A stretch of DNA of 63,992 bases, filler included, from an uncultured bacterium (GTDB lineage: Bacteria; CAYSBA01): NCBI GenBank assembly GCA_964429075.1. It is 8 parts of 8 records of this genome, joined end to end, with 100 filler letters (N's around TTAATTAATTAA, not from the genome) between each part and the next. Parts side by side here need not be neighbours in the genome. Positions count along the whole stretch, not along the records: positions 8,677 to 17,094 come from CAYSBA010000040.1; 7 more parts are not named here. One strand, 5' to 3'. Below the pieces are notes generated by a model, which made no database searches, was not told the origin of the DNA, and saw nothing but the letters and a program-made list of their open reading frames with translations. Positions 85 to 58,475 of the stretch are shown here, piece by piece. Position numbers and translations under genes: made by a program. Numbering within the stretch: the first letter of the stretch is position 1; each line of letters begins with the position of its first letter.

Positions 85-1137
85 ATGTGGATACTGATAA
101 TAATCTTGAAGGTAATCCTTGCCTTCACTTTTGTGATGGCGCTTACTACACTCCTTACACTTGCAGAAAGGAAACAAAGCGCATGGATGCAGGACAGAAT
201 AGGTCCAAACAGGGCGGAGATTTTAGGATTTACCCTTGGAGGTCTCTTTCATCCGATAGCAGATGCGATTAAGCTAATTACAAAAGAGGATTTTGTACCA
301 GAAGAGGGCAATTCATTTATTCACACCCTTGCACCTTTTTTTATGATGGTACCAGTACTGGCAATGATATCTGCCTTCCCCTTTGCTTCTGGTGATTTTT
401 ACATATCAAACATAGACATTGGCATCCTCTTTGTTCTTGCAATGGCCTCTATGACCGTCTATGGTGCAGTCCTTGCCGGCTATGGCTCAAACAACAAATT
501 TGCGATCCTCGGTTCTTTAAGGGCAGCCTCTCAAATGCTCTCCTATGAGCTTGTAATGGGCCTCTCTGTAATCGGTATAATCCTTTGTATGGGTACACTA
601 AACCCTGTTGAGATGGCACAGTACCAGCAACACATGATATTGGGTTTTATTCCAAGGTGGGGTGTTTTGATTCAGCCAGTCGGTTTTATACTCTTTTTAA
701 CAGCAGCAATTGCAGAAAACAAGCGTACACCTTTTGATCTTCCTGAGGGTGAATCAGAGATAATCGGATACTTCATCGAGTATTCAGGGATCAGATGGGG
801 TATGTTCTTTATTGGAGAATTTGCTGAGATTGTAATAATCTCTATGTTAATTACAACACTCTTTTTTGGTGCATATAATATCCCCTTTCTGTATAACGAT
901 GGTTTTCATTTTGGCAACACCATCTTTATTCTACCTCACTGGCTCGTTATCATCCTTCAGATCCTCTCATTTATTTTCAAGGTTATCTTCTTTTCCGCAT
1001 TTCAACTCCTTATAAGATGGACCCTTCCAAGATTTCGCTTCGACCAGATTTTGAGACTATGTTGGAAGTACCTGTTTCCTATTGCTGTTTCAAATCTAAT
1101 AGTTACTGCCTTTGTAGTTACATTAATTAACAGTTAA
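85..1137 (+). CDS. nuoH: NADH-quinone oxidoreductase subunit H (orphan paralog)
   Basis: ERK..A.MQDRIGPNR, ADAIKLITKED, ENKRTPFDLPEGESE, RWTLPRFRFDQ motifs; multiple TM helices. Confidence 0.95.
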   Translation: MWILIIILKVILAFTFVMALTTLLTLAERKQSAWMQDRIGPNRAEILGFTLGGLFHPIADAIKLITKEDFVPEEGNSFIHTLAPFFMMVPVLAMISAFPFASGDFYISNIDIGILFVLAMASMTVYGAVLAGYGSNNKFAILGSLRAASQMLSYELVMGLSVIGIILCMGTLNPVEMAQYQQHMILGFIPRWGVLIQPVGFILFLTAAIAENKRTPFDLPEGESEIIGYFIEYSGIRWGMFFIGEFAEIVIISMLITTLFFGAYNIPFLYNDGFHFGNTIFILPHWLVIILQILSFIFKVIFFSAFQLLIRWTLPRFRFDQILRLCWKYLFPIAVSNLIVTAFVVTLINS

Positions 1138-1140
1138 AAG

Positions 1141-1677
1141 ATGCCAAATAAAAAAGGTCTGATATATCTTTTTACCGGTCATGGCAAAGGCAAGACCTCT
1201 GCTGCCCTTGGAATGGCCTTAAGATCTATTGGCTGGGGATACAGGGTAAGGATCATACAATTTATGAAAAGTACCACAAAATATGGTGAGAATCGTGCAA
1301 AGAAACTTCTTGGAGATCTGCTTGAAATCGATGTATGTGGTGCTGGTTTCTACGGTATCAAGGGTGATGTGGCTACCGAACAGGAACACAAAGAGGCTGC
1401 CCACAAAGCACTTTTGCTTGCCGAAAAGGTCCTTACTGAGGGCAATTATCACCTTGTAATACTCGATGAGATAAACAATACCGTGCACCTTGGACTCCTC
1501 GATCAACAGGATGTCATTTCAGTTTTGGAAAAGAGAAAAGAGGGAGTCCATGTGGTACTAACAGGAAGAGATGCCCCTCCTCTTTTTGAAAAGATAGCAG
1601 ATCTCGTTACTGAGATGAGAGAGATAAAACACCCCTTTTACAGAGGTATTCCTGCAGCAAGAGGACTTGATTATTAG
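1141..1677 (+). CDS. cobO: cob(I)yrinic acid a,c-diamide adenosyltransferase (CobO/BtuR)
   Basis: TGHGKGKTSAALG, IQFMK, ILDEIN, VVLTGR, ADLVTEMREIKHP, RGLDY. Confidence 0.92.
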   Translation: MPNKKGLIYLFTGHGKGKTSAALGMALRSIGWGYRVRIIQFMKSTTKYGENRAKKLLGDLLEIDVCGAGFYGIKGDVATEQEHKEAAHKALLLAEKVLTEGNYHLVILDEINNTVHLGLLDQQDVISVLEKRKEGVHVVLTGRDAPPLFEKIADLVTEMREIKHPFYRGIPAARGLDY

Positions 1678-5590: not shown

Positions 5591-6805
5591 CTATTTTTTC
5601 AGGCTTGCCAGATATCTCTCTGCCTCAATTGCAGCCATACAGCCCATCCCTGCAGCAGTTACTGCCTGCCTGTAATCTGGATCACAGACATCACCACATG
5701 CATATACACCTTCAAGATTGGTCTTTACCCTACCGTCTTCTGTCTTTATATATCCCCTTTCATCAAGAGGCAGGATATCAGCAAAGGGCTCGGTGTTGGG
5801 CTTATGACCAATTGCGATAAAGATCCCATCAAAATTTTCTTCCGTGATCTCACCTGTCTTTGTATCTTTCAGTTTTGCACCTGTTACCTTCATCCCATCA
5901 CCAAGCACCTCTTCTACAACCTTATTCAACCGAAACTCTATCTTTGGATTCTCTTTGAGACGGGTCTGCATTATTTGACTCGCCCTGAGTTCATCCCTTC
6001 TATGAATCAAAACTACCTTTGATGCAAAACGTGTCAAAAATAGTGCTTCCTCTGCAGCCGTATCACCCCCACCCACAACTGCAACCTTCTGGTCTCTAAA
6101 GAAAAATCCATCGCATGTTGCGCAGGCACTCACGCCTTTGCCCTTGTATTTAGCTTCAGACTCAATACCAAGATACTTAGCACTGGCACCAGTTGCGATT
6201 ATTAAAACCCTGCAAATAATTATATCCTTATTTGAGAGCTCCACTATCTTCAGTCTGCTATCCCTGTCAAATTCAACCTTCTGCACCATCGAAGACTTAA
6301 ATCTTGCACCAAATCTCCTCGCCTGTTTCCTCATACGGTCCATCAAAACAGGTCCATCTATCCCCTCCTCAAAACCTGGATAATTTTCCACCTCACTTGT
6401 GGTTGTAAGCTGCCCCCCGGGCTCAAGACCATCAATCACAAGGGGATTTAGCATTGCTCTCGATGCGTAAATAGCTGCAGTCAAGCCGGCCGGCCCTGAC
6501 CCTACAATCAATACCCTTTCCACAGATACATCTGTATCAGGTTTTTTGACATCCAAAAGCTCACCAAGCTTACCGGAGTCTATCATCTTCTTCAGATCAT
6601 CAAAACCTCCTATGTGCCTGCCCTTTATAAATATTTGTGGAACTGTAGTCCTTCCTCCAGATTCCTCTTTCATTCTTTCAAAAGTATCTTTATCTTTTGA
6701 TACATCTAATCTCTCAATATCCTCAATCCCGCAATGGCTGAGAAGCAGTATCGCAGCCTTACAGTATGGACAGTTTGGTTTGCTATAGATCTTTACATCT
6801 GACAT
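5591..6805 (-). CDS. trxB: glutaredoxin-thioredoxin reductase fusion
   Basis: N-terminal Grx (CPYC, TVPQIF, IGG) then GSGPAG, GGQL, CATCDG, GGGDTA, HRRD, GDV...YRQAVTAAG. Confidence 0.92.
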   Translation of the reverse strand: MSDVKIYSKPNCPYCKAAILLLSHCGIEDIERLDVSKDKDTFERMKEESGGRTTVPQIFIKGRHIGGFDDLKKMIDSGKLGELLDVKKPDTDVSVERVLIVGSGPAGLTAAIYASRAMLNPLVIDGLEPGGQLTTTSEVENYPGFEEGIDGPVLMDRMRKQARRFGARFKSSMVQKVEFDRDSRLKIVELSNKDIIICRVLIIATGASAKYLGIESEAKYKGKGVSACATCDGFFFRDQKVAVVGGGDTAAEEALFLTRFASKVVLIHRRDELRASQIMQTRLKENPKIEFRLNKVVEEVLGDGMKVTGAKLKDTKTGEITEENFDGIFIAIGHKPNTEPFADILPLDERGYIKTEDGRVKTNLEGVYACGDVCDPDYRQAVTAAGMGCMAAIEAERYLASLKK

Positions 6806-8576: not shown

Positions 8577-8676
8577 NNNNNNNNNNNNNNNNNNNNNNNN
8601 NNNNNNNNNNNNNNNNNNNNTTAATTAATTAANNNNNNNNNNNNNNNNNNNNNNNNNNNNNNNNNNNNNNNNNNNN
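8577..8676. other. artificial contig linker
   Basis: 44 N + TTAATTAATTAA + 44 N. Confidence 0.98.
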
Positions 8677-10508: not shown

Positions 10509-10820
10509 TCAACCTTTCAACAGTTTCATCTCATCTGCATCTATCTTATGATGATAAAGATAGTATGCCATGACAAGTGCAATGGCAACAACAGCCTCTG
10601 CTGCAGCAATCAATATAACAAAGAGTGCCACAGTCTGTCCTTCTGCACCAAGTTTCCCATATTTAGAAAAGGATATCAGATTTAGATTTGCTGCATTTAA
10701 CATAAGCTCTATGCCGAGAAGCAGACCTATTAAATTCTTTCTTATAAGAATACATAAGATACCACTTGTAAATACAAAGGATGCAACCAGCCCGAAATAT
10801 GTCCCACTGCTAAAAATCAC
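10509..10820 (-). CDS. nuoK: NADH-quinone oxidoreductase subunit K
   Basis: IELMLNAANLN, AAAEAVV, C-terminal LKG. Confidence 0.93.
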   Translation of the reverse strand: MIFSSGTYFGLVASFVFTSGILCILIRKNLIGLLLGIELMLNAANLNLISFSKYGKLGAEGQTVALFVILIAAAEAVVAIALVMAYYLYHHKIDADEMKLLKG

Positions 10821-11311
10821 TTCTCAATCTCCTTTTTAATTAGAACAACTGCACCTATCAGTGCTGCTACCAGAAGAATACTTACAGCCTCAAATGGGAA
10901 AAGATACTTGCCAAGTAAAAGATTACCTATATCGGAAAGAACTATTTTTTTGCCACCTGTATGGTTAATAGAGTTGTACGTATTAAAAATAGATATTGCT
11001 AAAAGCACAAAAGCAGCAAGAAATATTAAAACTCTCTTTTTTGTACCAGACAGTGGATTTGAACCCCTTCCCTGCCCTATCTTCTGGGTTAACATGATAC
11101 CAAAAAGAAAAAGGACACAGATCCCACCCACATATATAAGAAGTTGAATCATTGCTACAAAGGGTGCATCAAGATAGAGGTAGAATCCTGCAAAGGATGC
11201 AAGGGTTACAAACAGTCCAACAAGCGAATGCATCAGGTTCTTGCTAAAACACACAAGAAGACAACCAACAACTGTAAAGACTCCAAGTATTATGGCAAAT
11301 ATCTCACCCAC
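10817..11311 (-). CDS. nuoJ: NADH-quinone oxidoreductase subunit J
   Basis: QLLIYVGGI.VLFLFGIML, YLFPFEAVSILLVAALIGAV. Confidence 0.93.
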   Translation of the reverse strand: MGEIFAIILGVFTVVGCLLVCFSKNLMHSLVGLFVTLASFAGFYLYLDAPFVAMIQLLIYVGGICVLFLFGIMLTQKIGQGRGSNPLSGTKKRVLIFLAAFVLLAISIFNTYNSINHTGGKKIVLSDIGNLLLGKYLFPFEAVSILLVAALIGAVVLIKKEIEK

Positions 11312-12388
11312 TTATAACTCCGTTGGATGAATAGAAAATAGAAAATCCGTGTCTTTACTCACCCTGCCATCAGGTCCAACTCCCATAAACCGATCTTCAT
11401 CGCCAGCAACCTCTTCTGCCACCTCTGTTTTTTTCTGTTTAGTTTCAGAAACATTATCGCCGGCAAAACGTGCCTTAATCAGCGATTCGATACTGATTTT
11501 AGTTTCATCGCCACCAGGTTCACATAATGTAAGATCCTTCTCCTCACCAGTAGTAAGGGCCTTTGCATATCCTTCACAATCATCATAACCGCAGGCACCA
11601 CAATCTGTACCTGCAAGTTTACTCTTTAACATCTCCTTAAAATCTTCAATACTAAGTTCCTTAATTTTTGAGCTATCTTCTCTTGGTTTCTGGATTAAGG
11701 ACTTTTCTTTGCGCACCTCTTTCTTTGCGATTAGCTCTTCGGGGCATGTTGCAGGATCAGAAAATGAAGGCCATCCACTTTTGTCTGTCTGCAGGTGTCC
11801 TCTTCTGTGAGGATATACCATATTTATAGATGCTAATTGTGGACTATAATCTGTTAGGAAATGTTCTCTCAATATTGAACCTAATGGCTTTCTCTCAGGG
11901 TCTACGCCCTTTTTTGGTTTATAGACCTTTTTTGGCTCACCATATTTAATAAATTGAAACACAAGCTTATCCTGATCTGTAACTGCATATTGAAATTCTT
12001 TTGTATGCATTATAGCTCCAGTTGGACAGGGTTCGCTACACAATCCGCAAAACATACATTTGGAGTTATCTATATCAAATAACAGGATGTATCTGTCTTT
12101 CTTTTCATCGCCCCACTTTTCAACAACAATATTTATCACTCCGAGTGGACATGCCCTCATGCAGGCCTTGCAACCGGTACAAATGTCAATATCAACCTCT
12201 AAAAGACCACGAGAACCCTCCGGTATATAGTCTCTTATATCTTTTTCTATCCTGTCTGGATACTGGATTGTATACGGCCTCCTAAAGAGGTATGATAATG
12301 TTACACTCATGCCTTTGAAGATACTGACAAATGTATCTTTTATGTTTGTTAAGTAAGTGTTTTTATTTTGTTTTGCAGTAGTTACCAT
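11312..12388 (-). CDS. nuoI: NuoI with C-terminal extra putative [4Fe-4S] domain (RnfB/AcsC N-terminal type)
   Basis: TIQYP, CTGCKACMRACP and CMFCGLCSEPCP; extra DCGACGYDDC...CEPGG; lies between nuoH and nuoJ. Confidence 0.9.
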   Translation of the reverse strand: MVTTAKQNKNTYLTNIKDTFVSIFKGMSVTLSYLFRRPYTIQYPDRIEKDIRDYIPEGSRGLLEVDIDICTGCKACMRACPLGVINIVVEKWGDEKKDRYILLFDIDNSKCMFCGLCSEPCPTGAIMHTKEFQYAVTDQDKLVFQFIKYGEPKKVYKPKKGVDPERKPLGSILREHFLTDYSPQLASINMVYPHRRGHLQTDKSGWPSFSDPATCPEELIAKKEVRKEKSLIQKPREDSSKIKELSIEDFKEMLKSKLAGTDCGACGYDDCEGYAKALTTGEEKDLTLCEPGGDETKISIESLIKARFAGDNVSETKQKKTEVAEEVAGDEDRFMGVGPDGRVSKDTDFLFSIHPTEL

Positions 12389-13563
12389 ATCTGTTTTAAA
12401 GTAATAGTTTCTTTTGCACCTTTTACGTAACCAATTGCCCTCTTAAGCATCAGAACAAAGGCAAAAACAAAACTCAAAAATGTTAAAACACCAAAGATTG
12501 GTTCTGTTGGCCTAAAGAAAAACAACCATAATCCGGCTATAAAAAGGGCTAGAAATCCTATCGGTACAAGATACTTCCAGCACATCTCCATCATCTGATC
12601 TATCCTCAATCTTGGAAGTGTCCATCTCAACCAGATGATAACGAAAACGAGTATAAACGCCTTTAACATAAAGATAACTATTGACAATATCGGATAAAAT
12701 TTGCTGCTTTGATCGATCAAAGGTACCTGCCAGCCTCCCAGAAATACAGCTGTTGCAATTGCAGATATAACATAAAGATTTGCCCATTCTGAAAGAAAGA
12801 AAACTGCAAATCTAAAACCGGAATACTCGGTATTGTATCCTGATACGAGTTCACTCTCTGCCTCTGGAAGATCAAAAGGTGTCCTGTTTGATTCTGCAAG
12901 TGATGATATAAAGAAGATAAAAAAAGCTATCGTGCCTGCAGGGTTTCCAAAAACATTCCATTGCCAGGGCCATGGACCCTGAAGCATTATTATCTTTTGA
13001 ATGCTAAGTGTTCCCGACAAAAGGACTATTGTTGTTAGCGCAATACCACTCGGAATTTCATAGGCAATTATCTGTGCTGCAGACCTCAACCCACCAAGAA
13101 CCGACCATTTATTGTTTGATGACCACCCACTCAGGATTATTCCTATAACGACAAGAGATGATACAGCAACAAGATACACGATGGCAACATCAAAATCTAT
13201 CCCAACCACATGACTCCCAAAAGGTATGACTGCAAAGGTTGCAAACATACCGGTAAACACAAGATAGGGTCCAATATGGAACAAAAGTGAATCTCCAGCA
13301 GGCGGGATAAAATCCTCTTTTAAGATTACCTTAATGCCGTCTGCAATCCATTGCAGTATTCCCTGTGGACCGACCCGGTTTGGACCGATCCTTGCTTGCA
13401 TTCTACCCGCTATCCTGCGCTCAACATAACTCACAATTCCTGCGAATGGAGCAGTAAAGATAAAGAGCACCAAAAATGCATAAAGCAACGCAACTATAAG
13501 CATCAGGATGTTATTATCTTTTGAAATTTGAAGCAGCTCTATTATACCTTCTGGGAATTGCAT
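12382..13563 (-). CDS. nuoH: NADH-quinone oxidoreductase subunit H
   Basis: ERRIAGRMQARIGPNRVGPQG, ESNRTPFDLPEAESELVSGYNTEYSG, RWTLPRLRIDQ. Confidence 0.96.
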   Translation of the reverse strand: MQFPEGIIELLQISKDNNILMLIVALLYAFLVLFIFTAPFAGIVSYVERRIAGRMQARIGPNRVGPQGILQWIADGIKVILKEDFIPPAGDSLLFHIGPYLVFTGMFATFAVIPFGSHVVGIDFDVAIVYLVAVSSLVVIGIILSGWSSNNKWSVLGGLRSAAQIIAYEIPSGIALTTIVLLSGTLSIQKIIMLQGPWPWQWNVFGNPAGTIAFFIFFISSLAESNRTPFDLPEAESELVSGYNTEYSGFRFAVFFLSEWANLYVISAIATAVFLGGWQVPLIDQSSKFYPILSIVIFMLKAFILVFVIIWLRWTLPRLRIDQMMEMCWKYLVPIGFLALFIAGLWLFFFRPTEPIFGVLTFLSFVFAFVLMLKRAIGYVKGAKETITLKQIW

Positions 13564-14687
13564 TATCTATCTACCTCCGGTGCAACAACATCCATGCTTG
13601 CAATAAGGGTAATCATATCTGCAATCAGAATACCTTTTGCCTTTTTCTCTATTGCGTGCATTGCAGAAAATGATCCTGTTCTTATTTTCACCCTGAATGG
13701 CGTTTCACTGCCATCCCCAACAACAAAATAACCAAGTTCACCCCTTGAACTCTCAACTGCGGTGTAGGTCATCCCATCTACCTTTAATTTTCTTGGCAAT
13801 TTTGCCATAATCGGCCCATCTGGCAGGTTCTGAAGGCACTGTCTGATCATCTTTACAGACTCTCTCATCTCGCCAATTCTTACAACAAAACGATCAAAAC
13901 TATCCCCTACTGTGCCCATTTCTCCCTTGCCGACAACCACATTAAAATCTAACTCTGGATATATTGAATAGGGCATGTCTCTCCTCAAATCCCAGTCTAC
14001 TCCACTTGCTCTTAAGTTTGGCCCCACAAGACCAAAATCCAGTGCCTCCTTATCAGTTATTACGACCACATCTTTGAGCCTTTCAATATAAATTTTATTA
14101 TATGTAATAAGATCGTTAAACTCATCTATAAAGGGTTCAAAAGAGTCCAGAAATTTCAAGCAGGCATCCTTCCACCCATCTGGGATATCCCTTGCAACTC
14201 CACCAATCCTCATATAATTATATGTGAGACGTTGTCCACACAACCACTCCATCAAATCATTTACCTTTTCCCTCTCTTTTAAACCAAGGACAAATGGAGT
14301 GACTGCTCCAATATCCATTGCCATAACACCAAGCATCAGAAGGTGGCTTATAATTCTGTTGAGCTCATCAGCAATAACCCGTAGATACTCTGCCCTTTTT
14401 GGGACCTCAATACCGAGTAATTTTTCAACAGCCATTGCATATCCATGATTGGCAAGCATCGCAGATAGATAATCAACCCTATCTGTATAGGGCATAAAGC
14501 CATTGTAGGTCACATCTTCTGCACACTTTTCAATAGATCTATGAAGATATCCAACAACCGCTCTGCATCCAAGTATTAACTCACCATCTGTCTCGAGCAC
14601 AAAACGCAGTACACCATGTGTGGAGGGATGGTGTGGCCCCATATTAAGAATAATTTTGTTGCTCTTTTTATCTACAAATTCTATCAA
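13563..14687 (-). CDS. nuoD: NADH-quinone oxidoreductase subunit D
   Basis: NMGPHHPSTHGVLR, GYLHR, DRVDY, ESSRGE, EVDR; no NiFe CxxC motifs. Confidence 0.95.
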   Translation of the reverse strand: MIEFVDKKSNKIILNMGPHHPSTHGVLRFVLETDGELILGCRAVVGYLHRSIEKCAEDVTYNGFMPYTDRVDYLSAMLANHGYAMAVEKLLGIEVPKRAEYLRVIADELNRIISHLLMLGVMAMDIGAVTPFVLGLKEREKVNDLMEWLCGQRLTYNYMRIGGVARDIPDGWKDACLKFLDSFEPFIDEFNDLITYNKIYIERLKDVVVITDKEALDFGLVGPNLRASGVDWDLRRDMPYSIYPELDFNVVVGKGEMGTVGDSFDRFVVRIGEMRESVKMIRQCLQNLPDGPIMAKLPRKLKVDGMTYTAVESSRGELGYFVVGDGSETPFRVKIRTGSFSAMHAIEKKAKGILIADMITLIASMDVVAPEVDR

Positions 14688-15217
14688 TCCTTTTCCTCTA
14701 TACCATATTTATCTTTTGCAAAAACGGCACCTCTCTCGAGTAGATTTGGCCTGAAGGCAGTTATATTGTGATAGGATGTCGGAAACTGATAGTCCTTTCT
14801 CATCGGAAATCCCTCCCAGTCATCTGGTAGTAGTAGATGATCTGTAACATCGAGGCCTTCAAATTCTACTCCAAAAAGCTCTTTGGTTTCTCTCTCAAAC
14901 CATGATGCAGATTCGAAAAGTGAACTTATAGACCTTACTACAGGTTTATCTCTATCCAATGCAACAAGCAGGCTGAATAATGTCTTATTCCTGTAGGACC
15001 AGAAGTGATAAACAATCTCAATTACCTTTTGATCAGGCCTATCAATGCCTGAAATACAATCCAGTACTGCCTCAATATCTCTGTCTTCTTTTAGTCCTTT
15101 TACAACATCAAAAAGACCATCCTTTGAGATCACCAGACACGGTTCCTTTGAGACATCAAGGGTCTTTTCAAAAAAATTTTTTGAGATATCCTTAAGCCTT
15201 GTCAACAAATCTTGCAT
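14684..15217 (-). CDS. nuoC: NADH-quinone oxidoreductase subunit C
   Basis: [29 protein letters not shown]. Confidence 0.92.
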
Positions 15218-15800
15218 CCTTTATCTTTGCCTCTCTTGGTTCATCAATACGCTTTAACCAGTCTTCTTTCATCATGAGTTCCTGTATTTTCATCATACCC
15301 CACAACAATGCCTCAGGCCTTGGAGGGCATCCCGGCACATAGACATCAACAGGTAATATCAAATCAACACCCTTTACCACAGAATAGCTCCTCTGAAAAA
15401 GACCGCCAGAGGTTGCACAGCTTCCCATTGCAAGACAGTATTTTGGCTCGGTCATCTGTTCGTATAAGAGAAGTGCTCTTTCTGCCATTTTATAGGTGAG
15501 GGTCCCGGAAACAATTAACAGATCTGCCTGTCTAGGAGTTGCTCTAAAGACCATACCAAATCTATCAAGATCTGTTCTTGGACCACCTGTCTGCATCATC
15601 TCAATGGCACAACATGCAAGACCAAAGAGCAGATACCATAAAGAGGATTTACGAAGCCAGTTTACCACATCATTCCCACCATGTTCGAATAACTCTTTTA
15701 AAAACTGATGCATTGTCACGGTATCGGTAACGACTATTCCACCGTCACCAGTAGATTCAACCCTTAAGTTTAGTTTAATGTCTTCGGATCCTTTATCCAC
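15192..15800 (-). CDS. nuoB: NADH-quinone oxidoreductase subunit B
   Basis: [36 protein letters not shown]. Confidence 0.96.
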
Positions 15801-16165
15801 TTAAGATCTCCCTTTTTCCAGCAATAAATAAGAGCGGCAAAAAGGATTGCCACAAAAAGCATAATTTCAAAAAATGCAACAGGCCCATGACCCCTTCTTA
15901 AAAATCCCCTGTAAACTGCAGCAACAGGGAAAATGAGGGCAAGCTCTACATCAAAGATCAAAAATATTACAGCAAAAATATAATATCTCGGGTTATATTG
16001 GAACCAGCCACTACCATAAGGGATTTCACCACATTCATAGGTTGTTGCTTTCCCTACTGTGTTATGTGCACGGGGTCTGAGAAGGGCACCAATCAAAAGA
16101 GTGATTCCAACAAATATAGGTGCTGCGACTATAAATGTAAATGCAACAAGAAACTCTGAGCTCAT
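15770..16165 (-). CDS. nuoA: NADH-quinone oxidoreductase subunit A
   Basis: [28 protein letters not shown]; start reassigned to ATG at 16165. Confidence 0.93.
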
Positions 16166-16193
16166 AACACAACGCCGTTTAAAAATTGTTGCA

Positions 16194-16222
16194 TCTATAA
16201 TTGAATTTATAAAATGTGTCAA
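16194..16222 (-). promoter_or_regulatory. putative sigma70 promoter of nuo operon
   Basis: minus-strand TTGACA (16222-16217), 17 bp spacer, TATAGA (16199-16194). Confidence 0.5.
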
Positions 16223-17094: not shown

Positions 17095-17194
17095 NNNNNN
17101 NNNNNNNNNNNNNNNNNNNNNNNNNNNNNNNNNNNNNNTTAATTAATTAANNNNNNNNNNNNNNNNNNNNNNNNNNNNNNNNNNNNNNNNNNNN
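17095..17194. other. artificial contig linker
   Basis: 44 N + TTAATTAATTAA + 44 N. Confidence 0.98.
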
Positions 17195-18356: not shown

Positions 18357-19741
18357 AAAGGGATAGTAAGGCAGGGACATACAGGGTCATAAGGTTGCTT
18401 GGACAGGGTGGAATGGCACAGGTATATCTTGCCGAAAAGCATGGTCCTGCTGGTTTTAGAAAGAGGGTAGTACTGAAAAGAATCCTTGGTGGAAGAGAAC
18501 GGGACCACGAGTTTGAAGATCTATTTACAAAAGAGGCAAAGATAGCATCTCTACTCGATCATCCAAATATTGTTAAAATTTTTGACTTTGGAAGGGATGA
18601 GGAGGGTTACTATATAGTAATGGAATATGTCGAAGGTATAACTTTAAAAGGGCTTTACCCTCTTCTTATAGATCTTGATCCAATAGACAGATTGAGACTG
18701 GCTGTGTGGGTTATTAAAGATGTTGCAAGGGCACTCTCTTATGCCCACAATTATCAAAGAGATGGCATACTTGGTATTGTACACCGGGATGTAAGTCCGC
18801 AAAATGTCCTGTTGTCCATTCATGGGGAGGTAAAGCTGAGTGATTTTGGTATTGCAAAGGCGCTTGAAGTTACTGACTACACACAGACAGGCAGAATAAT
18901 CGGAAAACTTCCATATATGGCCCCAGAGATGCTTGAAAATGGCATTTCATCCAAAAAGACCGATGTATTTGCACTCGGTGTCCTTAGCTGGGAGATGGTA
19001 TGTGCCAGAAGGCTATTTGATGCTAAATCTCATAATGAAATAAGAAGGCAGATAATTGATGGTCTGGTCCCGCCACCATCAGTCTTCAATGATGATATAC
19101 CCGATTATCTCGAAAGCTTGATCCTTATGATGCTTCACAAAAAACCTCATCTAAGACCAGATGCAGCAACAATTGTGGATATGCTTTCCAGGGCCGCTTT
19201 AAGTGGTCTTGGAGTTATGACTGAAGAGGCAGGAGATATAATAAAAGAGATAGTTAATAAGAGGTTCCACTTAGTGACAACACAGATTTTTGCTGACACT
19301 GACACTAACAAAAGAAAGACAAACAAAAAACAATATGCTTTTCTTTTTGGCATTTTTATTTTGTTTTTTTNNNNNNNNNNCGCAGATCCTTATAATATTT
19401 TTAGAAAAGAATTGCCGTTCTCAAAAAACCGCAGCTCAAAAAATTTGGCAACAGACAAAAAGGTGCTAAAGAGATCTCGAGTTATACCAATAAAAACTAT
19501 AGCAACAACAAAAAATTCAAAAGGATATGGGTTTCTTACAGTAAACACAATACCATGGACTTCAGTTTATATAGACGGTAGATATGTTGGCTCAACACCT
19601 ATTTCGGCTTTGAGATTAAAGGAAGGGGTGCACAACGTGGTTGTAAAAAATACCAGCTTTGGCATAATTAAAAAGAGTAGAATTACAATTAAAAAGGGTA
19701 AAAAAGAGAGATTAATATTATCATTAATGGATAAAGAATAA
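18353..19741 (+). CDS. membrane Ser/Thr protein kinase with C-terminal PEGA-like domain
   Basis: LGQGGMAQVY, VVLKRI, HRDVSPQN, DFGIAK, YMAPE; TM segment spanning a 10-N gap; LTVNTIPWTSVYIDG...G.TP. Confidence 0.92.
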   Translation: MKRDSKAGTYRVIRLLGQGGMAQVYLAEKHGPAGFRKRVVLKRILGGRERDHEFEDLFTKEAKIASLLDHPNIVKIFDFGRDEEGYYIVMEYVEGITLKGLYPLLIDLDPIDRLRLAVWVIKDVARALSYAHNYQRDGILGIVHRDVSPQNVLLSIHGEVKLSDFGIAKALEVTDYTQTGRIIGKLPYMAPEMLENGISSKKTDVFALGVLSWEMVCARRLFDAKSHNEIRRQIIDGLVPPPSVFNDDIPDYLESLILMMLHKKPHLRPDAATIVDMLSRAALSGLGVMTEEAGDIIKEIVNKRFHLVTTQIFADTDTNKRKTNKKQYAFLFGIFILFFXXXXADPYNIFRKELPFSKNRSSKNLATDKKVLKRSRVIPIKTIATTKNSKGYGFLTVNTIPWTSVYIDGRYVGSTPISALRLKEGVHNVVVKNTSFGIIKKSRITIKKGKKERLILSLMDKE

Positions 19742-21891: not shown

Positions 21892-23179
21892 ATGAAAGTA
21901 CTTGTTGTTGGTTCTGGTGGAAGAGAACATGCCATTTGCTGGAGACTTAAAAAGGACGGAGCCCAGGAGGTTTTTTGTGCCCCCGGAAACGCAGGCACAC
22001 AGATCGACGGTATAGAAAATATTGATATAAATCCTGATGAATTTGGTGCCATAGCTTCATTTTGTAAAAAACGCGGGGTGGAACTTGTTGTAGTTGGACC
22101 TGAAAAACCCCTATGCAATGGGATTGCTGATTATTTGATGGGTGAAAATATAACTGTATTTGGTCCTGTTAAAAGGGCGGCTATGCTCGAAGGCAGCAAG
22201 ATCTTTGCAAAAAGATTTATGAAAAAATACAAGATACCTACCGCTCAATTTGACACAGCACATGATGCCAGCCATGCATACGAGATCGCAAAAAATATGA
22301 ACTTTAGATGTGCAATTAAAGTGGACGGTCTTGCAGCCGGCAAGGGTGTTTTTGTTTGTAGAAGTGAAAGTGATGTTACAGATGCACTTGATGTGATTTT
22401 TAAGGAAAGACGCTTTGGAGCTTCAGGCAGTAGTGTTGTAGTAGAAGAGTTGTTAGAAGGAGAAGAGGCCTCATATATCGTTATGGTGGGAAGGGGTGGT
22501 TATATCAGTTTTCCACCTTCACAGGATCATAAACCTGTCTATGATGGAGATAGAGGTCCAAATACCGGTGGAATGGGTGCCTACGCACCTTGTCCACTTG
22601 TGGATGAAAGGCTTGAACATAAGATTATAGATACTATTGTTGAGCCAACCCTGTCCGGACTTAATAACGAGGATATCGATTTTTTTGGATTTCTGTACAT
22701 AGGTTTGATGATTGATGAGGAGGGTCCGAAGGTTTTAGAGTTTAACGTACGAATGGGTGATCCTGAGACTCAGCCTTTACTGTTCGGTATTGATGATAAT
22801 TTTATCGATCTTTTGATAGAGGCTAAAGATGGCGCTTTTCATACAAAGAGGGTATCGTTCAGTGGATACACCGTATGTGTGGTGATGGCGCAGAGTGGAT
22901 ATCCAGGATCGTATAAAAAAGGTATGCTTATCAGTGGTCTTGATGACCCANNNNNNNNNNAACGATTGGATAAAGGTATTCCATGCAGGTACAGTAATCA
23001 AAGAGGGTTCAGTTTTTACAAATGGTGGGAGGGTACTTGGCATTACTGCAAGGGGTGATGATATAAAAAGTGCCATAAAGAGGGCCTATGAGGGTGTTGA
23101 TAAAATCCACTGGGAAGGCAGATATTTCAGAAAAGACATTGCCAAGAAGGCACTTAAGAGATTGCAACAGACCTATTAG
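21892..23179 (+). CDS. purD: phosphoribosylamine-glycine ligase (spans a 10-N gap)
   Basis: GSGGREHA, LEGSK, DGLAAGKGV, QDHK, GPNTGGMG, EFNVRMGDPE; after the gap FHAGT, NGGRVL, FRKDIA in another frame. Confidence 0.95.
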
Positions 23180-25516: not shown

Positions 25517-25616
25517 NNNNNNNNNNNNNNNNNNNNNNNNNNNNNNNNNNNNNNNNNNNNTTAATTAATTAANNNNNNNNNNNNNNNNNNNNNNNNNNNN
25601 NNNNNNNNNNNNNNNN
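25517..25616. other. artificial contig linker
   Basis: 44 N + TTAATTAATTAA + 44 N. Confidence 0.98.
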
Positions 25617-27183: not shown

Positions 27184-27729
27184 TTATGACTTATACAGTG
27201 CAAATCCTGCCTTCAAAGCACGCCTGTTTAACTCTTCTGTGCCTTTTGGTACTTTCTTCAATAGCGCCTTTTCAAGGGACTCTAATTTCACAACACCTGT
27301 GGAAGAGGCAATCACTCCAAGTGCAACTACATTTGCGACAAAGGCCTTTCCAACCTCTTTAACAGCTGTATCTATAATTGGAACACTGACAACTTTATAT
27401 TTTGACAGGTCCATGCCATTTGTCTTTACATCAACTGAATCAACAATGAGTGTACCACCCTCTTTAAGACTATCCTTAAATTTGTTGAAGGAATCCTGTG
27501 TCAGGCTCAGCAACATATCAAGATCCGTTGTTTCAACATAATCTATGGGTTCATCATCAATAATCACATCTGCCCTTGAAGCCCCTCCCCTTGCTTCTGC
27601 ACCATAAACCTGACTCTGCAACACAAATTTACCTTCATAAAGGGCAGCGGCCTCACCAAGAATAACCGAAGCGAGTATTATACCCTGTCCTCCGGAACCG
27701 CTGAGCCTGATCTCATATCGCTTTCCCAT
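27184..27729 (-). CDS. korC: 2-oxoacid:ferredoxin oxidoreductase gamma subunit
   Basis: GSGGQG, YGAEARGG.S, NVVALG, N.RAL.AG. Confidence 0.92.
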   Translation of the reverse strand: MGKRYEIRLSGSGGQGIILASVILGEAAALYEGKFVLQSQVYGAEARGGASRADVIIDDEPIDYVETTDLDMLLSLTQDSFNKFKDSLKEGGTLIVDSVDVKTNGMDLSKYKVVSVPIIDTAVKEVGKAFVANVVALGVIASSTGVVKLESLEKALLKKVPKGTEELNRRALKAGFALYKS

Positions 27730-27739
27730 AATACCACCC

Positions 27740-28879
27740 TCAATTTATGTTATTCTCAATATAATCAACAATCATGTCTGGAGATATTGGATGCCCTGTT
27801 ACATCACAGACTGAGTGTACTTTTGCTCTTCCATTGTTGATTCGTTCCACCTCAAGTACAAGCTGTCCAAGGTTCATCTCAGCTACAACTACATGTTTCA
27901 CACCCTTTGCCAGAAGTTCCACAAGCTGTCTTTCAGGGAACGGCCATACAGTAACGGGTCTAAAAAGACCTATCTTTTTCCCCTTTTCCCTTAATATCTT
28001 AACTGCCCTCTGTGCAGAGCGTGAGATTGAACCAATTGCAACAATAATTAACTCTGCATCTTCAGCCATAAAATAGTCTACCCTGTCTATGTAATCTCTA
28101 TGTTTTTCGATCTTTTGAAACAGCCTTCTTTCCTCTTTGTCAACAAAATCACTCTTTGTTGTTGGGAATCCTGTTTCATCATGATTCAGCCCTGTTGTAT
28201 GGAAACGGTGCCCATCACCATATGCTGCCATTAGTGGGATTACATCACCTTCGGGCACTTCGTATGGACGATATTGCTCAAGCTCTTTGCCAGGTTTTTT
28301 TCTATCTATAACCTCAAGCTCACCCTCCTGTGGTATCTTTATCTTTTCACGCATATGCCCAACAATTTCGTCAGAGAGAATAATAACAGGGTTTCTTATT
28401 AGCTCTGCTATGTTAAAGGCCCTGACAGTTTCAGTAAACATCTCATAAACTGATGAAGGTGCAACTGCAACTATAGGATGATCACCATGAGTTCCCCACC
28501 TTGCCTGCATAATATCAGACTGAGATGGTTGTGTGGGTAGACCTGTGCTTGGTCCGCCTCTTTGAACGTCTACGATCACACAGGGGACTTCAGTAATACA
28601 TGCATAACCAAGGTTTTCCTGTTTTAATGAAAATCCAGGGCCACTCGTTGCTGTCATGGCCTTGAGACCTGCCAGTGATGCACCAATCACCGCTGCCATT
28701 GAACCTATCTCATCTTCCATCTGAATAAATCTACCTCCATACTTTGGTAGTTCAAGTGCCATTTTCTCAGCAATCTCAGAAGATGGTGTGATAGGATAAC
28801 CTGCAAAAAACCTGCACCCTGCATAGATTGCACCCATTGCACAGGCAATATTTCCCTGTAAAAATTCTATCTTTTCCAT
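27740..28879 (-). CDS. korA: 2-oxoacid:ferredoxin oxidoreductase alpha subunit
   Basis: AGYPITPSSEI, QMEDEI, TATSGPGFSL, QRGGPSTGLPT, EMNLGQ. Confidence 0.95.
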   Translation of the reverse strand: MEKIEFLQGNIACAMGAIYAGCRFFAGYPITPSSEIAEKMALELPKYGGRFIQMEDEIGSMAAVIGASLAGLKAMTATSGPGFSLKQENLGYACITEVPCVIVDVQRGGPSTGLPTQPSQSDIMQARWGTHGDHPIVAVAPSSVYEMFTETVRAFNIAELIRNPVIILSDEIVGHMREKIKIPQEGELEVIDRKKPGKELEQYRPYEVPEGDVIPLMAAYGDGHRFHTTGLNHDETGFPTTKSDFVDKEERRLFQKIEKHRDYIDRVDYFMAEDAELIIVAIGSISRSAQRAVKILREKGKKIGLFRPVTVWPFPERQLVELLAKGVKHVVVAEMNLGQLVLEVERINNGRAKVHSVCDVTGHPISPDMIVDYIENNIN

Positions 28880-28913
28880 TTTTTTCTCCGAAGAGGTTTG
28901 TTTTTTAAGACTT

Positions 28914-29240
28914 TTACTTTTTCTTCTTCCATTTTTTCAGGACATCCACCCAGATGGCAAAGTCTGGGCAGCGCATTTCACATAGCATGCACTGTGTACA
29001 GATTGTCACATCATTAACATAGACACTATTTCTCCCAAGTGTAAGACAGTGGACAGGACAGAAATCAACACAGATTCGACAATTTTTACAGAACCTTTCG
29101 TTTACAGAGATTATTGTAGTATCACAAATGTAGTGGACAATATCGGGATTCTCTTTGTCAGTTTCAACAATGGCATTTACAAGGACCCCTTCTCTTGTCT
29201 TTCCCTGGGAGACCTCATTCTTTTGAGGGCTGGTATTCAT
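28914..29240 (-). CDS. korD: 2x[4Fe-4S] ferredoxin-type delta subunit
   Basis: CKNCRICVDFCP and CTQCMLCEMRCPDFAI; directly upstream of korA. Confidence 0.88.
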   Translation of the reverse strand: MNTSPQKNEVSQGKTREGVLVNAIVETDKENPDIVHYICDTTIISVNERFCKNCRICVDFCPVHCLTLGRNSVYVNDVTICTQCMLCEMRCPDFAIWVDVLKKWKKKK

Positions 29241-33895: not shown

Positions 33896-33995
33896 NNNNN
33901 NNNNNNNNNNNNNNNNNNNNNNNNNNNNNNNNNNNNNNNTTAATTAATTAANNNNNNNNNNNNNNNNNNNNNNNNNNNNNNNNNNNNNNNNNNNN
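33896..33995. other. artificial contig linker
   Basis: 44 N + TTAATTAATTAA + 44 N. Confidence 0.98.
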
Positions 33996-42188: not shown

Positions 42189-42288
42189 NNNNNNNNNNNN
42201 NNNNNNNNNNNNNNNNNNNNNNNNNNNNNNNNTTAATTAATTAANNNNNNNNNNNNNNNNNNNNNNNNNNNNNNNNNNNNNNNNNNNN
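42189..42288. other. artificial contig linker
   Basis: 44 N + TTAATTAATTAA + 44 N. Confidence 0.98.
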
Positions 42289-50445: not shown

Positions 50446-50545
50446 NNNNNNNNNNNNNNNNNNNNNNNNNNNNNNNNNNNNNNNNNNNNTTAATTAATTA
50501 ANNNNNNNNNNNNNNNNNNNNNNNNNNNNNNNNNNNNNNNNNNNN
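50446..50545. other. artificial contig linker
   Basis: 44 N + TTAATTAATTAA + 44 N. Confidence 0.98.
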
Positions 50546-58375: not shown

Positions 58376-58475
58376 NNNNNNNNNNNNNNNNNNNNNNNNN
58401 NNNNNNNNNNNNNNNNNNNTTAATTAATTAANNNNNNNNNNNNNNNNNNNNNNNNNNNNNNNNNNNNNNNNNNNN
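58376..58475. other. artificial contig linker
   Basis: 44 N + TTAATTAATTAA + 44 N. Confidence 0.98.

Follow-up and report, generated by a model that had tools for sequence, protein, structure and literature searches.

Fusion of NuoI to a PF04060-type iron-sulfur domain in an 11-subunit complex I operon: a candidate tethered electron shuttle

What feeds electrons into the bacterial complex I-like enzymes that are built of 11 subunits and lack NuoE, NuoF and NuoG? By 2011 at the latest (PMC3144371) their donor had become an open question, and in 2024 it still was (PMC11238625). The question is raised here by one gene in a stretch of 63,992 nucleotides (the window, meaning the whole stretch analysed) from the metagenome-assembled genome (MAG) of an uncultured bacterium (CAYSBA01, GCA_964429075.1). 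This gene encodes a NuoI that continues, beyond its usual end and a long linker, into a second iron-sulfur domain, the PF04060 or FeS domain known from the FdI region of RnfB and from the corrinoid iron-sulfur protein (CoFeSP). The enzyme belongs to the known 11-subunit group and the added domain to the known PF04060 family.

The fused protein is read from one open frame at 11312..12388 on the minus strand, encoding 358 residues and ending in a normal stop that abuts nuoJ, in agreement with the original prediction of a NuoI of this length. Its N-terminal core contains two Fer4 motifs (residues 64-126; Fer4_7 E 1.4e-10) and matches the NCBIfam NuoI model TIGR01971 at residues 26-145 over 117 of 121 model positions, with 89.7 bits against a curated cut-off of 113; the fused NuoI proteins of relatives likewise score under this cut-off. 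All eight cluster cysteines, C70/73/76/80 and C111/114/117/121, are invariant among the 30 homologues of alignment A1. The core passes into a clade-specific basic extension, in which K157, K160, G161, R166 and G170 are invariant in the same 30 homologues. This extension is common to unfused relatives, whose matches span residues 1-175 and stop at about position 175. Beyond it, the hydrophilic linker has a predicted local distance difference test score (pLDDT) below 50 for residues 176-215 in the AlphaFold2 (AF2) model, and extension and linker together span about 110 residues before the FeS domain is reached. The 13 cysteines are distributed as eight in the CxxCxxCxxxCP motifs, C215 in the linker, and C263, C266, C271 and C289 in the FeS domain. 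No hydrophobic or transmembrane-like segment is found in the whole protein, the maximum KD19 value of 1.23 lying inside the core at residues 67-90.

The last four cysteines form the pattern C-x2-C-x4-C-x17-C followed by PGG, encoded at 11510-11602, within the interval near 11510-11620 where it had been expected. The assignment of this segment to the RnfB-N/CoFeSP-type family, also part of the original prediction, stands: PF04060 matches residues 258-289 (11522-11617; E 2.1e-8) over model positions 1-31 of 33, and its score of 34.2 bits exceeds the cut-off, which is 23. The NCBIfam RnfB model TIGR01944 aligns residues 252-324 to its positions 38-108, with a total of 69.8 against a cut-off of 68.7 that is summed from three separate stretches. 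A sequence search of the PDB with the C-terminal 118 residues returns only RnfB chains, 7zc6_B (E 0.004), 8ahx_B (E 0.0055) and 9eri_B (E 0.31), with no significant match to CoFeSP, and in 7zc6_B and 8ahx_B all four cysteines align with those of the N-terminal RnfB cluster site.

Comparison of the predicted fold agrees with these matches and adds little weight to them. The AF2 model of the whole protein is poor (mean pLDDT 53.6) and retrieves only weak NuoI-core matches in Foldseek, residues 241-310 being its sole confidently predicted part (pLDDT 81-91); a model of the domain alone has a mean pLDDT of 70.9. In an exhaustive structural comparison, RnfB chain 9eri_B ranks second with a root-mean-square deviation (rmsd) of 2.4 Å over 59 residues, at a Z of 5.3 that is tied with unrelated helical chains. 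With the domain alone, Foldseek places the CoFeSP N-terminal domain first and at several later ranks (4djd_C, 4c1n_G and 2ycl_A; 53-59 residues aligned, rmsd 2.1-3.7 Å, 23-28% identity), none of its matches being significant (E >= 2.4).

The likeness to RnfB FdI (7zc6_B, 8ahx_B, 9eri_B) extends over the PF04060 family, the CxxCxxxxCx17C spacing, the four aligned cysteines, a probably similar fold and flexible linkers. The setting is different. RnfB, encoded in an rnf operon, has the domain between a transmembrane anchor at its N-terminus and the Fer4 motifs, where it serves the iron site of RnfAE, whereas in the fused NuoI it is C-terminal after Fer4, in a protein without a transmembrane helix encoded in a nuo operon. 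An identification of the protein as an RnfB was accordingly rejected, given this domain order, the missing anchor and neighbours that are nuoH and nuoJ rather than rnf genes. The N-terminal [4Fe-4S] domain of the CoFeSP large subunit AcsC/CfsA (2ycl, 4djd, 4c1n, 9fzy) is also a small helical single-cluster domain with the same motif (PMC9588780), but its fusion partner is a corrinoid protein with a TIM barrel, and the centre it feeds is cobalt.

The fusion extends far beyond this one contig. A search of 5.8 billion proteins yields 645 matches at E <= 0.001; in the 120 top-ranking clusters, a strict motif, C-x2-C-x4-C-x12-22-C-x-[PA]GG, was counted behind the second Fer4 motif. It is present in 117 of these best 120 homologue clusters, singly in 61 and as two tandem copies in 56; of the three without it, two have a looser version. 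The four cysteines, together with AGTDCG and PGG, are invariant in the 30 aligned homologues and likewise in an alignment of 25 copies of the domain from loci, confirming the cysteine conservation that had been anticipated. In the tandem pairs (P0002-P0054 and others; loci L002, L005, L007, L008, L009 and L011), an Ala/Pro-rich spacer separates the two copies. A representative library with one protein per 50%-identity cluster contains about ten fused clusters among its best 150, and the ESM Atlas contributes three Fer4+PF04060 clusters, of 109, 50 and 61 members, whose most frequent source is Myxococcota. The motif occurs in 28 of 80 related loci drawn from species-representative genomes, with two copies in six of the 28; every one of them comes from a MAG, under the label Myxococcota, Myxococcia, Polyangia, 'Deltaproteobacteria' or 'uncultured bacterium'. 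Of 151 evenly sampled Myxococcota genomes, 63 have a NuoI match at E <= 1e-20, and in 11 the match runs through the FeS domain. No cultured host of the fusion was found. Public annotation as 'NADH-quinone oxidoreductase subunit I' or '(Fe-S)-binding protein' hides the architecture. Two other search results lie outside this family. L001, the sole match of a single-protein locus search, was dropped because it proved to be an ordinary Rnf operon, found through its RnfB. P0166, a protein of 263 residues with three tandem PF04060 stretches (E 8e-24) and no Fer4, looks, by its domain content, like a stand-alone multi-cluster version of the module.

This recurrence indicates that the fusion is a conserved family and not a chimera. 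An assembly chimera or frame artefact, in which the FeS domain would be foreign to the NuoI of this genome, could be suspected in a MAG contig of low coverage (depth about 6-10), and it is exceedingly improbable when the same architecture appears in so many independent assemblies and the frame here is single and runs to its normal stop. One DNA sequencing run was found to contain the gene, a hot-spring metagenome that is probably its source, and no RNA run is listed. A Logan contig covering 11259-11904 without differences holds the nuoJ start, the FeS domain, the linker and the NuoI-clade residues R166 and G170 together; among the contigs of that run, no piece covers 11905-11942.

The surrounding operon reveals the type of enzyme. 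The order nuoA-B-C-D-H-I-J-K-L, the abutting or overlapping genes and the lack of any gene between nuoD and nuoH are all as first described, established by open reading frame (ORF) coordinates and strong Pfam matches (Table 1). The end of nuoD overlaps the start of nuoH by 1 base, leaving no space for nuoEFG between them. The same adjacency recurs in every related locus with nuoD, nuoH and nuoI (60 of 60), where the distance from the end of D to the end of H (1.2-2.2 kb, median 1373 bp) fits nuoH alone. As here, related loci that extend to the neighbouring genes have nuoI flanked by nuoH and nuoJ, and loci of sufficient length continue from A-B-C-D-H-I-J-K into three antiporter-like genes. No convincing conserved extra gene occupies the nuoI-nuoJ gaps of loci L010 and L017. 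In NuoB, the cysteines of cluster N2 are intact by a reading of the sequence, which carries the N2 motifs CCxxE, GSC and GCPP. Judged by gene content, the operon is of the nuoABCDHIJKLMN type without E, F and G, that is, the 11-subunit type. The truncation of nuoL and the lack of nuoM and nuoN here are artefacts, because the nuo contig (8677-17094, 8418 bp, bounded by the joints 8577-8676 and 17095-17194) ends inside nuoL; a thiamine pyrophosphate (TPP)-enzyme fragment and an aldehyde dehydrogenase seen beyond nuoL belong to a different contig. For the same reason, since the contig stops at its joints, the absence of NuoEFG is shown for the operon and not for the genome.

In the genomes of relatives, an N-module is indeed encoded elsewhere. 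A NuoF-type protein above the Pfam cut-off is present in all five fused-NuoI genomes tested, and NuoE lies upstream of NuoF in the single genome checked with Pfam. Clear nuoJ-K-L-M-N matches accompany NuoF in four of the five, the fifth (L092) showing weak J and K matches only. Each of the five has at least one further, unfused NuoI-like match elsewhere, located in three of them on the contig of the fused gene. In several long loci, a divergent nuoA-B-C-D cluster stands back-to-back with the 11-subunit operon, and in one unfused locus a NuoG-like gene lies between D and H of the divergent cluster. The canonical complex is seen in split form in loci L088-L092, L025 and L010, with nuoE-F-J-K-L-M-N apart from nuoA-B-C-D-G-H-I, the latter piece adjoining the 11-subunit operon back-to-back. 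This layout matches the published one of myxobacteria, which have separate nuoEFJKLMN and nuoIHGDBA clusters, and of Anaeromyxobacter dehalogenans, in which a third, Chlorobium-like nuo cluster is back-to-back with nuoIHGDBA (PMC2330069).

Because these relatives carry NuoF, a second subunit set and an unfused NuoI, the fused enzyme is an additional and not the only complex I, and the hosts possess a canonical NADH complex I together with the fused enzyme as a second, specialised complex. The notion of a complex without NuoEFG consequently survives for the operon and not for the genomes, which encode NuoF and, in the one checked, NuoE. The original prediction counted as a refutation nuoEFG of the same complex clade located elsewhere in the genome with no role for the extra domain. 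Genes of this kind are formally present elsewhere in relatives, but they sit with a second full subunit set, and their presence is for that reason no proof of use by the fused complex. The MAG of the window probably has two complex I-type enzymes as well. A second NuoH, encoded on another contig, shows a median identity of 44% to the canonical-cluster NuoH of relatives (n=18) versus 36% to their 11-subunit NuoH (n=70), whereas the NuoH of the operon shows 52% to the 11-subunit type versus 36% to the canonical type.

The presence of this N-module bears on the function of the added domain. The FeS domain could be an additional cluster held in a fixed position, or an adaptor by which a specific large partner docks onto NuoI, such as NuoEF(G) encoded elsewhere, a hydrogenase or a formate dehydrogenase, extending the wire by one cluster without any swing. 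The NuoF and NuoE findings fit this arrangement, as does the divergent canonical nuo cluster beside the 11-subunit operon in L004, L010, L015 and L017, which would suit co-regulation, and the tandem two-domain forms do resemble a wire. It is nevertheless a fairly unlikely explanation: the EFG genes accompany a whole further subunit set with a NuoI of its own (PMC2330069), the long, variable and predicted disordered linker is ill-suited to a fixed wire, and the homologous RnfB domain makes no fixed interface in the structure as described (PMC9588780).

The properties of the tether instead agree with a moving domain. In Clostridium tetanomorphum RnfB, FdI (residues 40-90) is highly mobile between two flexible, solvent-exposed linkers, is proposed to swing by about 65 degrees as it carries electrons between fixed centres, and shares its fold with the CoFeSP N-terminal domain (PMC9588780). 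By analogy, the FdI-type domain on its flexible tether at the C-terminus of NuoI would bind a cluster and act as a swinging one-electron shuttle. Its source of single low-potential electrons would be a partner in the cytoplasm, soluble ferredoxin or the ferredoxin-like module of an oxidoreductase such as KOR or POR. Docking near N6a, the distal NuoI cluster that is exposed to solvent, it would pass the electrons on to this cluster, and they would proceed through N6b and N2 to quinone. Two-domain forms would lengthen the relay. The tethered mobile cluster put forward originally thus finds a described precedent in RnfB, mobility in NuoI itself being expected by homology. Its further proposals, that the domain replaces the NADH module and that ferredoxin or KOR is the donor, are inferences. 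In canonical complex I, the distal NuoI cluster reportedly faces NuoG, as in the Thermus thermophilus structure. Of the possible readings, we prefer a tethered shuttle that moves one electron at a time between N6a and a low-potential partner in the cytoplasm, and we give it an even chance of being right.

Charge provides a further hint. The FeS domain has a net charge of -6 (family median -6, negative in 24 of 25), and the extension behind the NuoI core a net charge of +4 (family median +3, positive in 29 of 30). This complementarity between the basic extension and the acidic FeS domain is family-wide, and the two segments may dock onto each other. When the NuoI core (residues 1-175) was co-folded, without controls, with the FeS domain and three 4Fe-4S clusters, the score was 0.03 (mark 0.32), which counts neither for nor against contact.

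A candidate partner is encoded in the same MAG. A 2-oxoacid:ferredoxin oxidoreductase cluster at 27184-29240 on the minus strand adjoins sucCD and mdh. No ORF for a TPP-binding beta subunit occurs between its KOR-type genes, which lie on another contig than the nuo operon, with nothing tying them to it. These genes would also suit a reverse operation with the same anatomy, in which the proton-motive force drives quinol electrons upward and the tethered domain passes them out to ferredoxin or to a partner enzyme, for example a 2-oxoacid:ferredoxin oxidoreductase working reductively. Rnf, which holds the closest FdI relative, is reversible (PMC9588780), in Nitrospina, reverse flow from quinol to ferredoxin has been proposed for a complex I variant that carries additional Fe-S clusters (PMC3578206), and the relatives already own a canonical NADH complex I for the forward flow. 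The sequence gives no direction, however, and no CO2-fixation or nitrogenase context is seen in the scanned part of the window; we consider reverse flow unlikely.

Several observations weigh against the tethered shuttle. Most members of the 11-subunit clade have no FeS domain, and the three MAGs nearest in NuoD (L108-L110; 62% identity, two of them labelled Myxococcota or Myxococcales) have an unfused NuoI of about 190-215 residues; the enzyme therefore does not need the domain in order to function. The operon also has no donor gene linked to it. The N-module may be shared with the fused complex, in view of the NuoF and NuoE genes described above. The fold matches are statistically weak, and cluster binding by the domain and its contact with NuoI are expectations drawn from sequence. 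On the NuoI-core tree, parsimony needs 10 changes of state, at least four of them forced by well-supported branches, and the protein of the window falls outside the main fused clades. This tree is poorly resolved (15 of 99 branches starred) and cannot separate one origin from several; the fused state is clustered on it, with 0 of 500 label shuffles needing as few changes. The domain has therefore been gained or lost repeatedly, or some 'unfused' rows of the tree are fragments, as some of them probably are. Ffh, encoded on another contig, is 48-56% identical (best 56%) to proteins across many phyla.

The dispensability of the domain for core catalysis, with so many clade members lacking it, would also suit a sensor or an assembly or regulatory cluster off the catalytic path, for instance in oxygen or redox control, and the hosts do come from both oxic and anoxic habitats, including a hot spring. 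Two described contexts of PF04060, RnfB and CoFeSP, are nevertheless those of electron transfer (PMC9588780), and the duplication of the domain is hard to account for by sensing, making this role quite improbable.

Known enzymes resemble the fused complex in part. The Chlorobium-type 11-subunit enzymes and the third nuo cluster of Anaeromyxobacter dehalogenans share the nuoABCDHIJKLMN content without EFG and the back-to-back position relative to nuoABCDGHI (PMC2330069). The described members differ by a plain NuoI, and Anaeromyxobacter loci match about residues 1-175 with no FeS motif. Cyanobacterial and plastid NDH-1 likewise consists of 11 core subunits without NuoEFG, and ferredoxin electrons enter it near NdhI; it binds soluble ferredoxin through the separate small subunits NdhS, NdhV and NdhO and is not known to have a fused cluster domain. 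The NDH-1 structures 6l7o and 6khi are among the NuoI-core matches in Foldseek. Fpo takes electrons through FpoF (PMC3144371). NUO-2 of Nitrospina and Kuenenia is another uncharacterised complex I variant with added [4Fe-4S] clusters and a hypothesised ferredoxin interface, although its extra clusters reside in NuoF2/NuoG2 of a modified N-module and belong to another domain family (PMC3578206). Passages on 11-subunit enzymes deal with a NuoC extension and candidate donors, and not with a NuoI fusion (PMC3144371, PMC11238625). No description of a NuoI-PF04060 fusion was found in the literature, subscription journals and supplements such as Fig. S5 of PMC2330069 and the tables of PMC3144371 lying outside the search; within that scope, the earlier statement that no characterised example is known agrees with the result.

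The remaining layout of the window is summarized in Table 1. The window is a chain of at least eight MAG contigs, interrupted by seven N44-TTAATTAATTAA-N44 joints, and genes flanking a joint are not true neighbours. Its G+C content is 39%. A glutaredoxin domain fused to a pyridine nucleotide-disulphide oxidoreductase is encoded at 5591-6805 on the minus strand.

Table 1. Features of the fused nuoI gene, the nuo operon and the rest of the window.
Feature	Position	Strand	Basis or remark
nuoA	15770..16222	-	PF00507, E 7e-28
nuoB	15192..15800	-	PF01058, E 3e-28
nuoC	14684..15217	-	PF00329, E 2e-31
nuoD	13563..14687	-	PF00346, E 6e-89
nuoH, 11-subunit type	12382..13563	-	PF00146, E 1e-112
nuoI-FeS fusion gene, 358 aa + stop	11312..12388	-	Pfam, NCBIfam
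NuoI core, residues 1-136	11981..12388	-	Fer4/Fer4_7 and TIGR01971 matches
CxxCxxCxxxCP motif C70-C80	12146-12181	-	ligands of clusters N6a/N6b (both motifs together)
CxxCxxCxxxCP motif C111-C121	12023-12058	-	ligands of clusters N6a/N6b (both motifs together)
Clade-specific basic C-terminal extension, residues 137-175	11864..11980	-	YKPKKG..R.PLG; family form YKPPKG..R.PLG
Variable hydrophilic linker, residues 176-245	11654..11863	-	not alignable among 30 homologues
FdI/PF04060-type domain and following helix, residues 246-324	11417..11653	-	PF04060, RnfB model
Acidic C-terminal tail, residues 325-358	11315..11416	-	unconserved: no counterpart in alignment A1; pLDDT <50
nuoJ	10817..11311	-	PF00499
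nuoK	10509..10820	-	PF00420
nuoL, 3' end lost at contig end	8677..10504	-	PF00361, PF00662, PF01010
Second NuoH paralogue, canonical nuoABCDGHI type	85..1137	+	PF00146, E 2e-98; other contig
cobA, ATP:corrinoid adenosyltransferase, after second NuoH	1141-1677	+	
KOR-type delta ferredoxin	28914-29240	-	
KOR-type alpha	27740-28879	-	
KOR-type gamma	27184-27729	-	
Artificial joints	8577-8676, 17095-17194, 25517-25616, 33896-33995, 42189-42288, 50446-50545, 58376-58475		N44-TTAATTAATTAA-N44
Further 10-N gaps	19371-19380 and 22951-22960		

In conclusion, bacterial 11-subunit complex I-like enzymes are widespread, and a conserved [4Fe-4S] domain tied to NuoI, the subunit of the entry cluster, marks a likely site of electron entry. 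The fusion makes the donor question of these enzymes experimentally approachable, and the one- and two-domain forms provide a natural series for testing the shuttle idea. A more far-reaching proposal, which we regard as tentative and doubtful, is that the tethered domain serves electron input as a swinging arm, which would make it the first module of its kind within the complex I superfamily. Such a module would allow low-potential electrons to be taken directly from several oxidoreductases, or returned to them under the proton-motive force, without an N-module or soluble ferredoxin, the number of domains setting its reach. If true, the donor question of bacterial 11-subunit complex I would, in the case of one clade, receive its first concrete answer.

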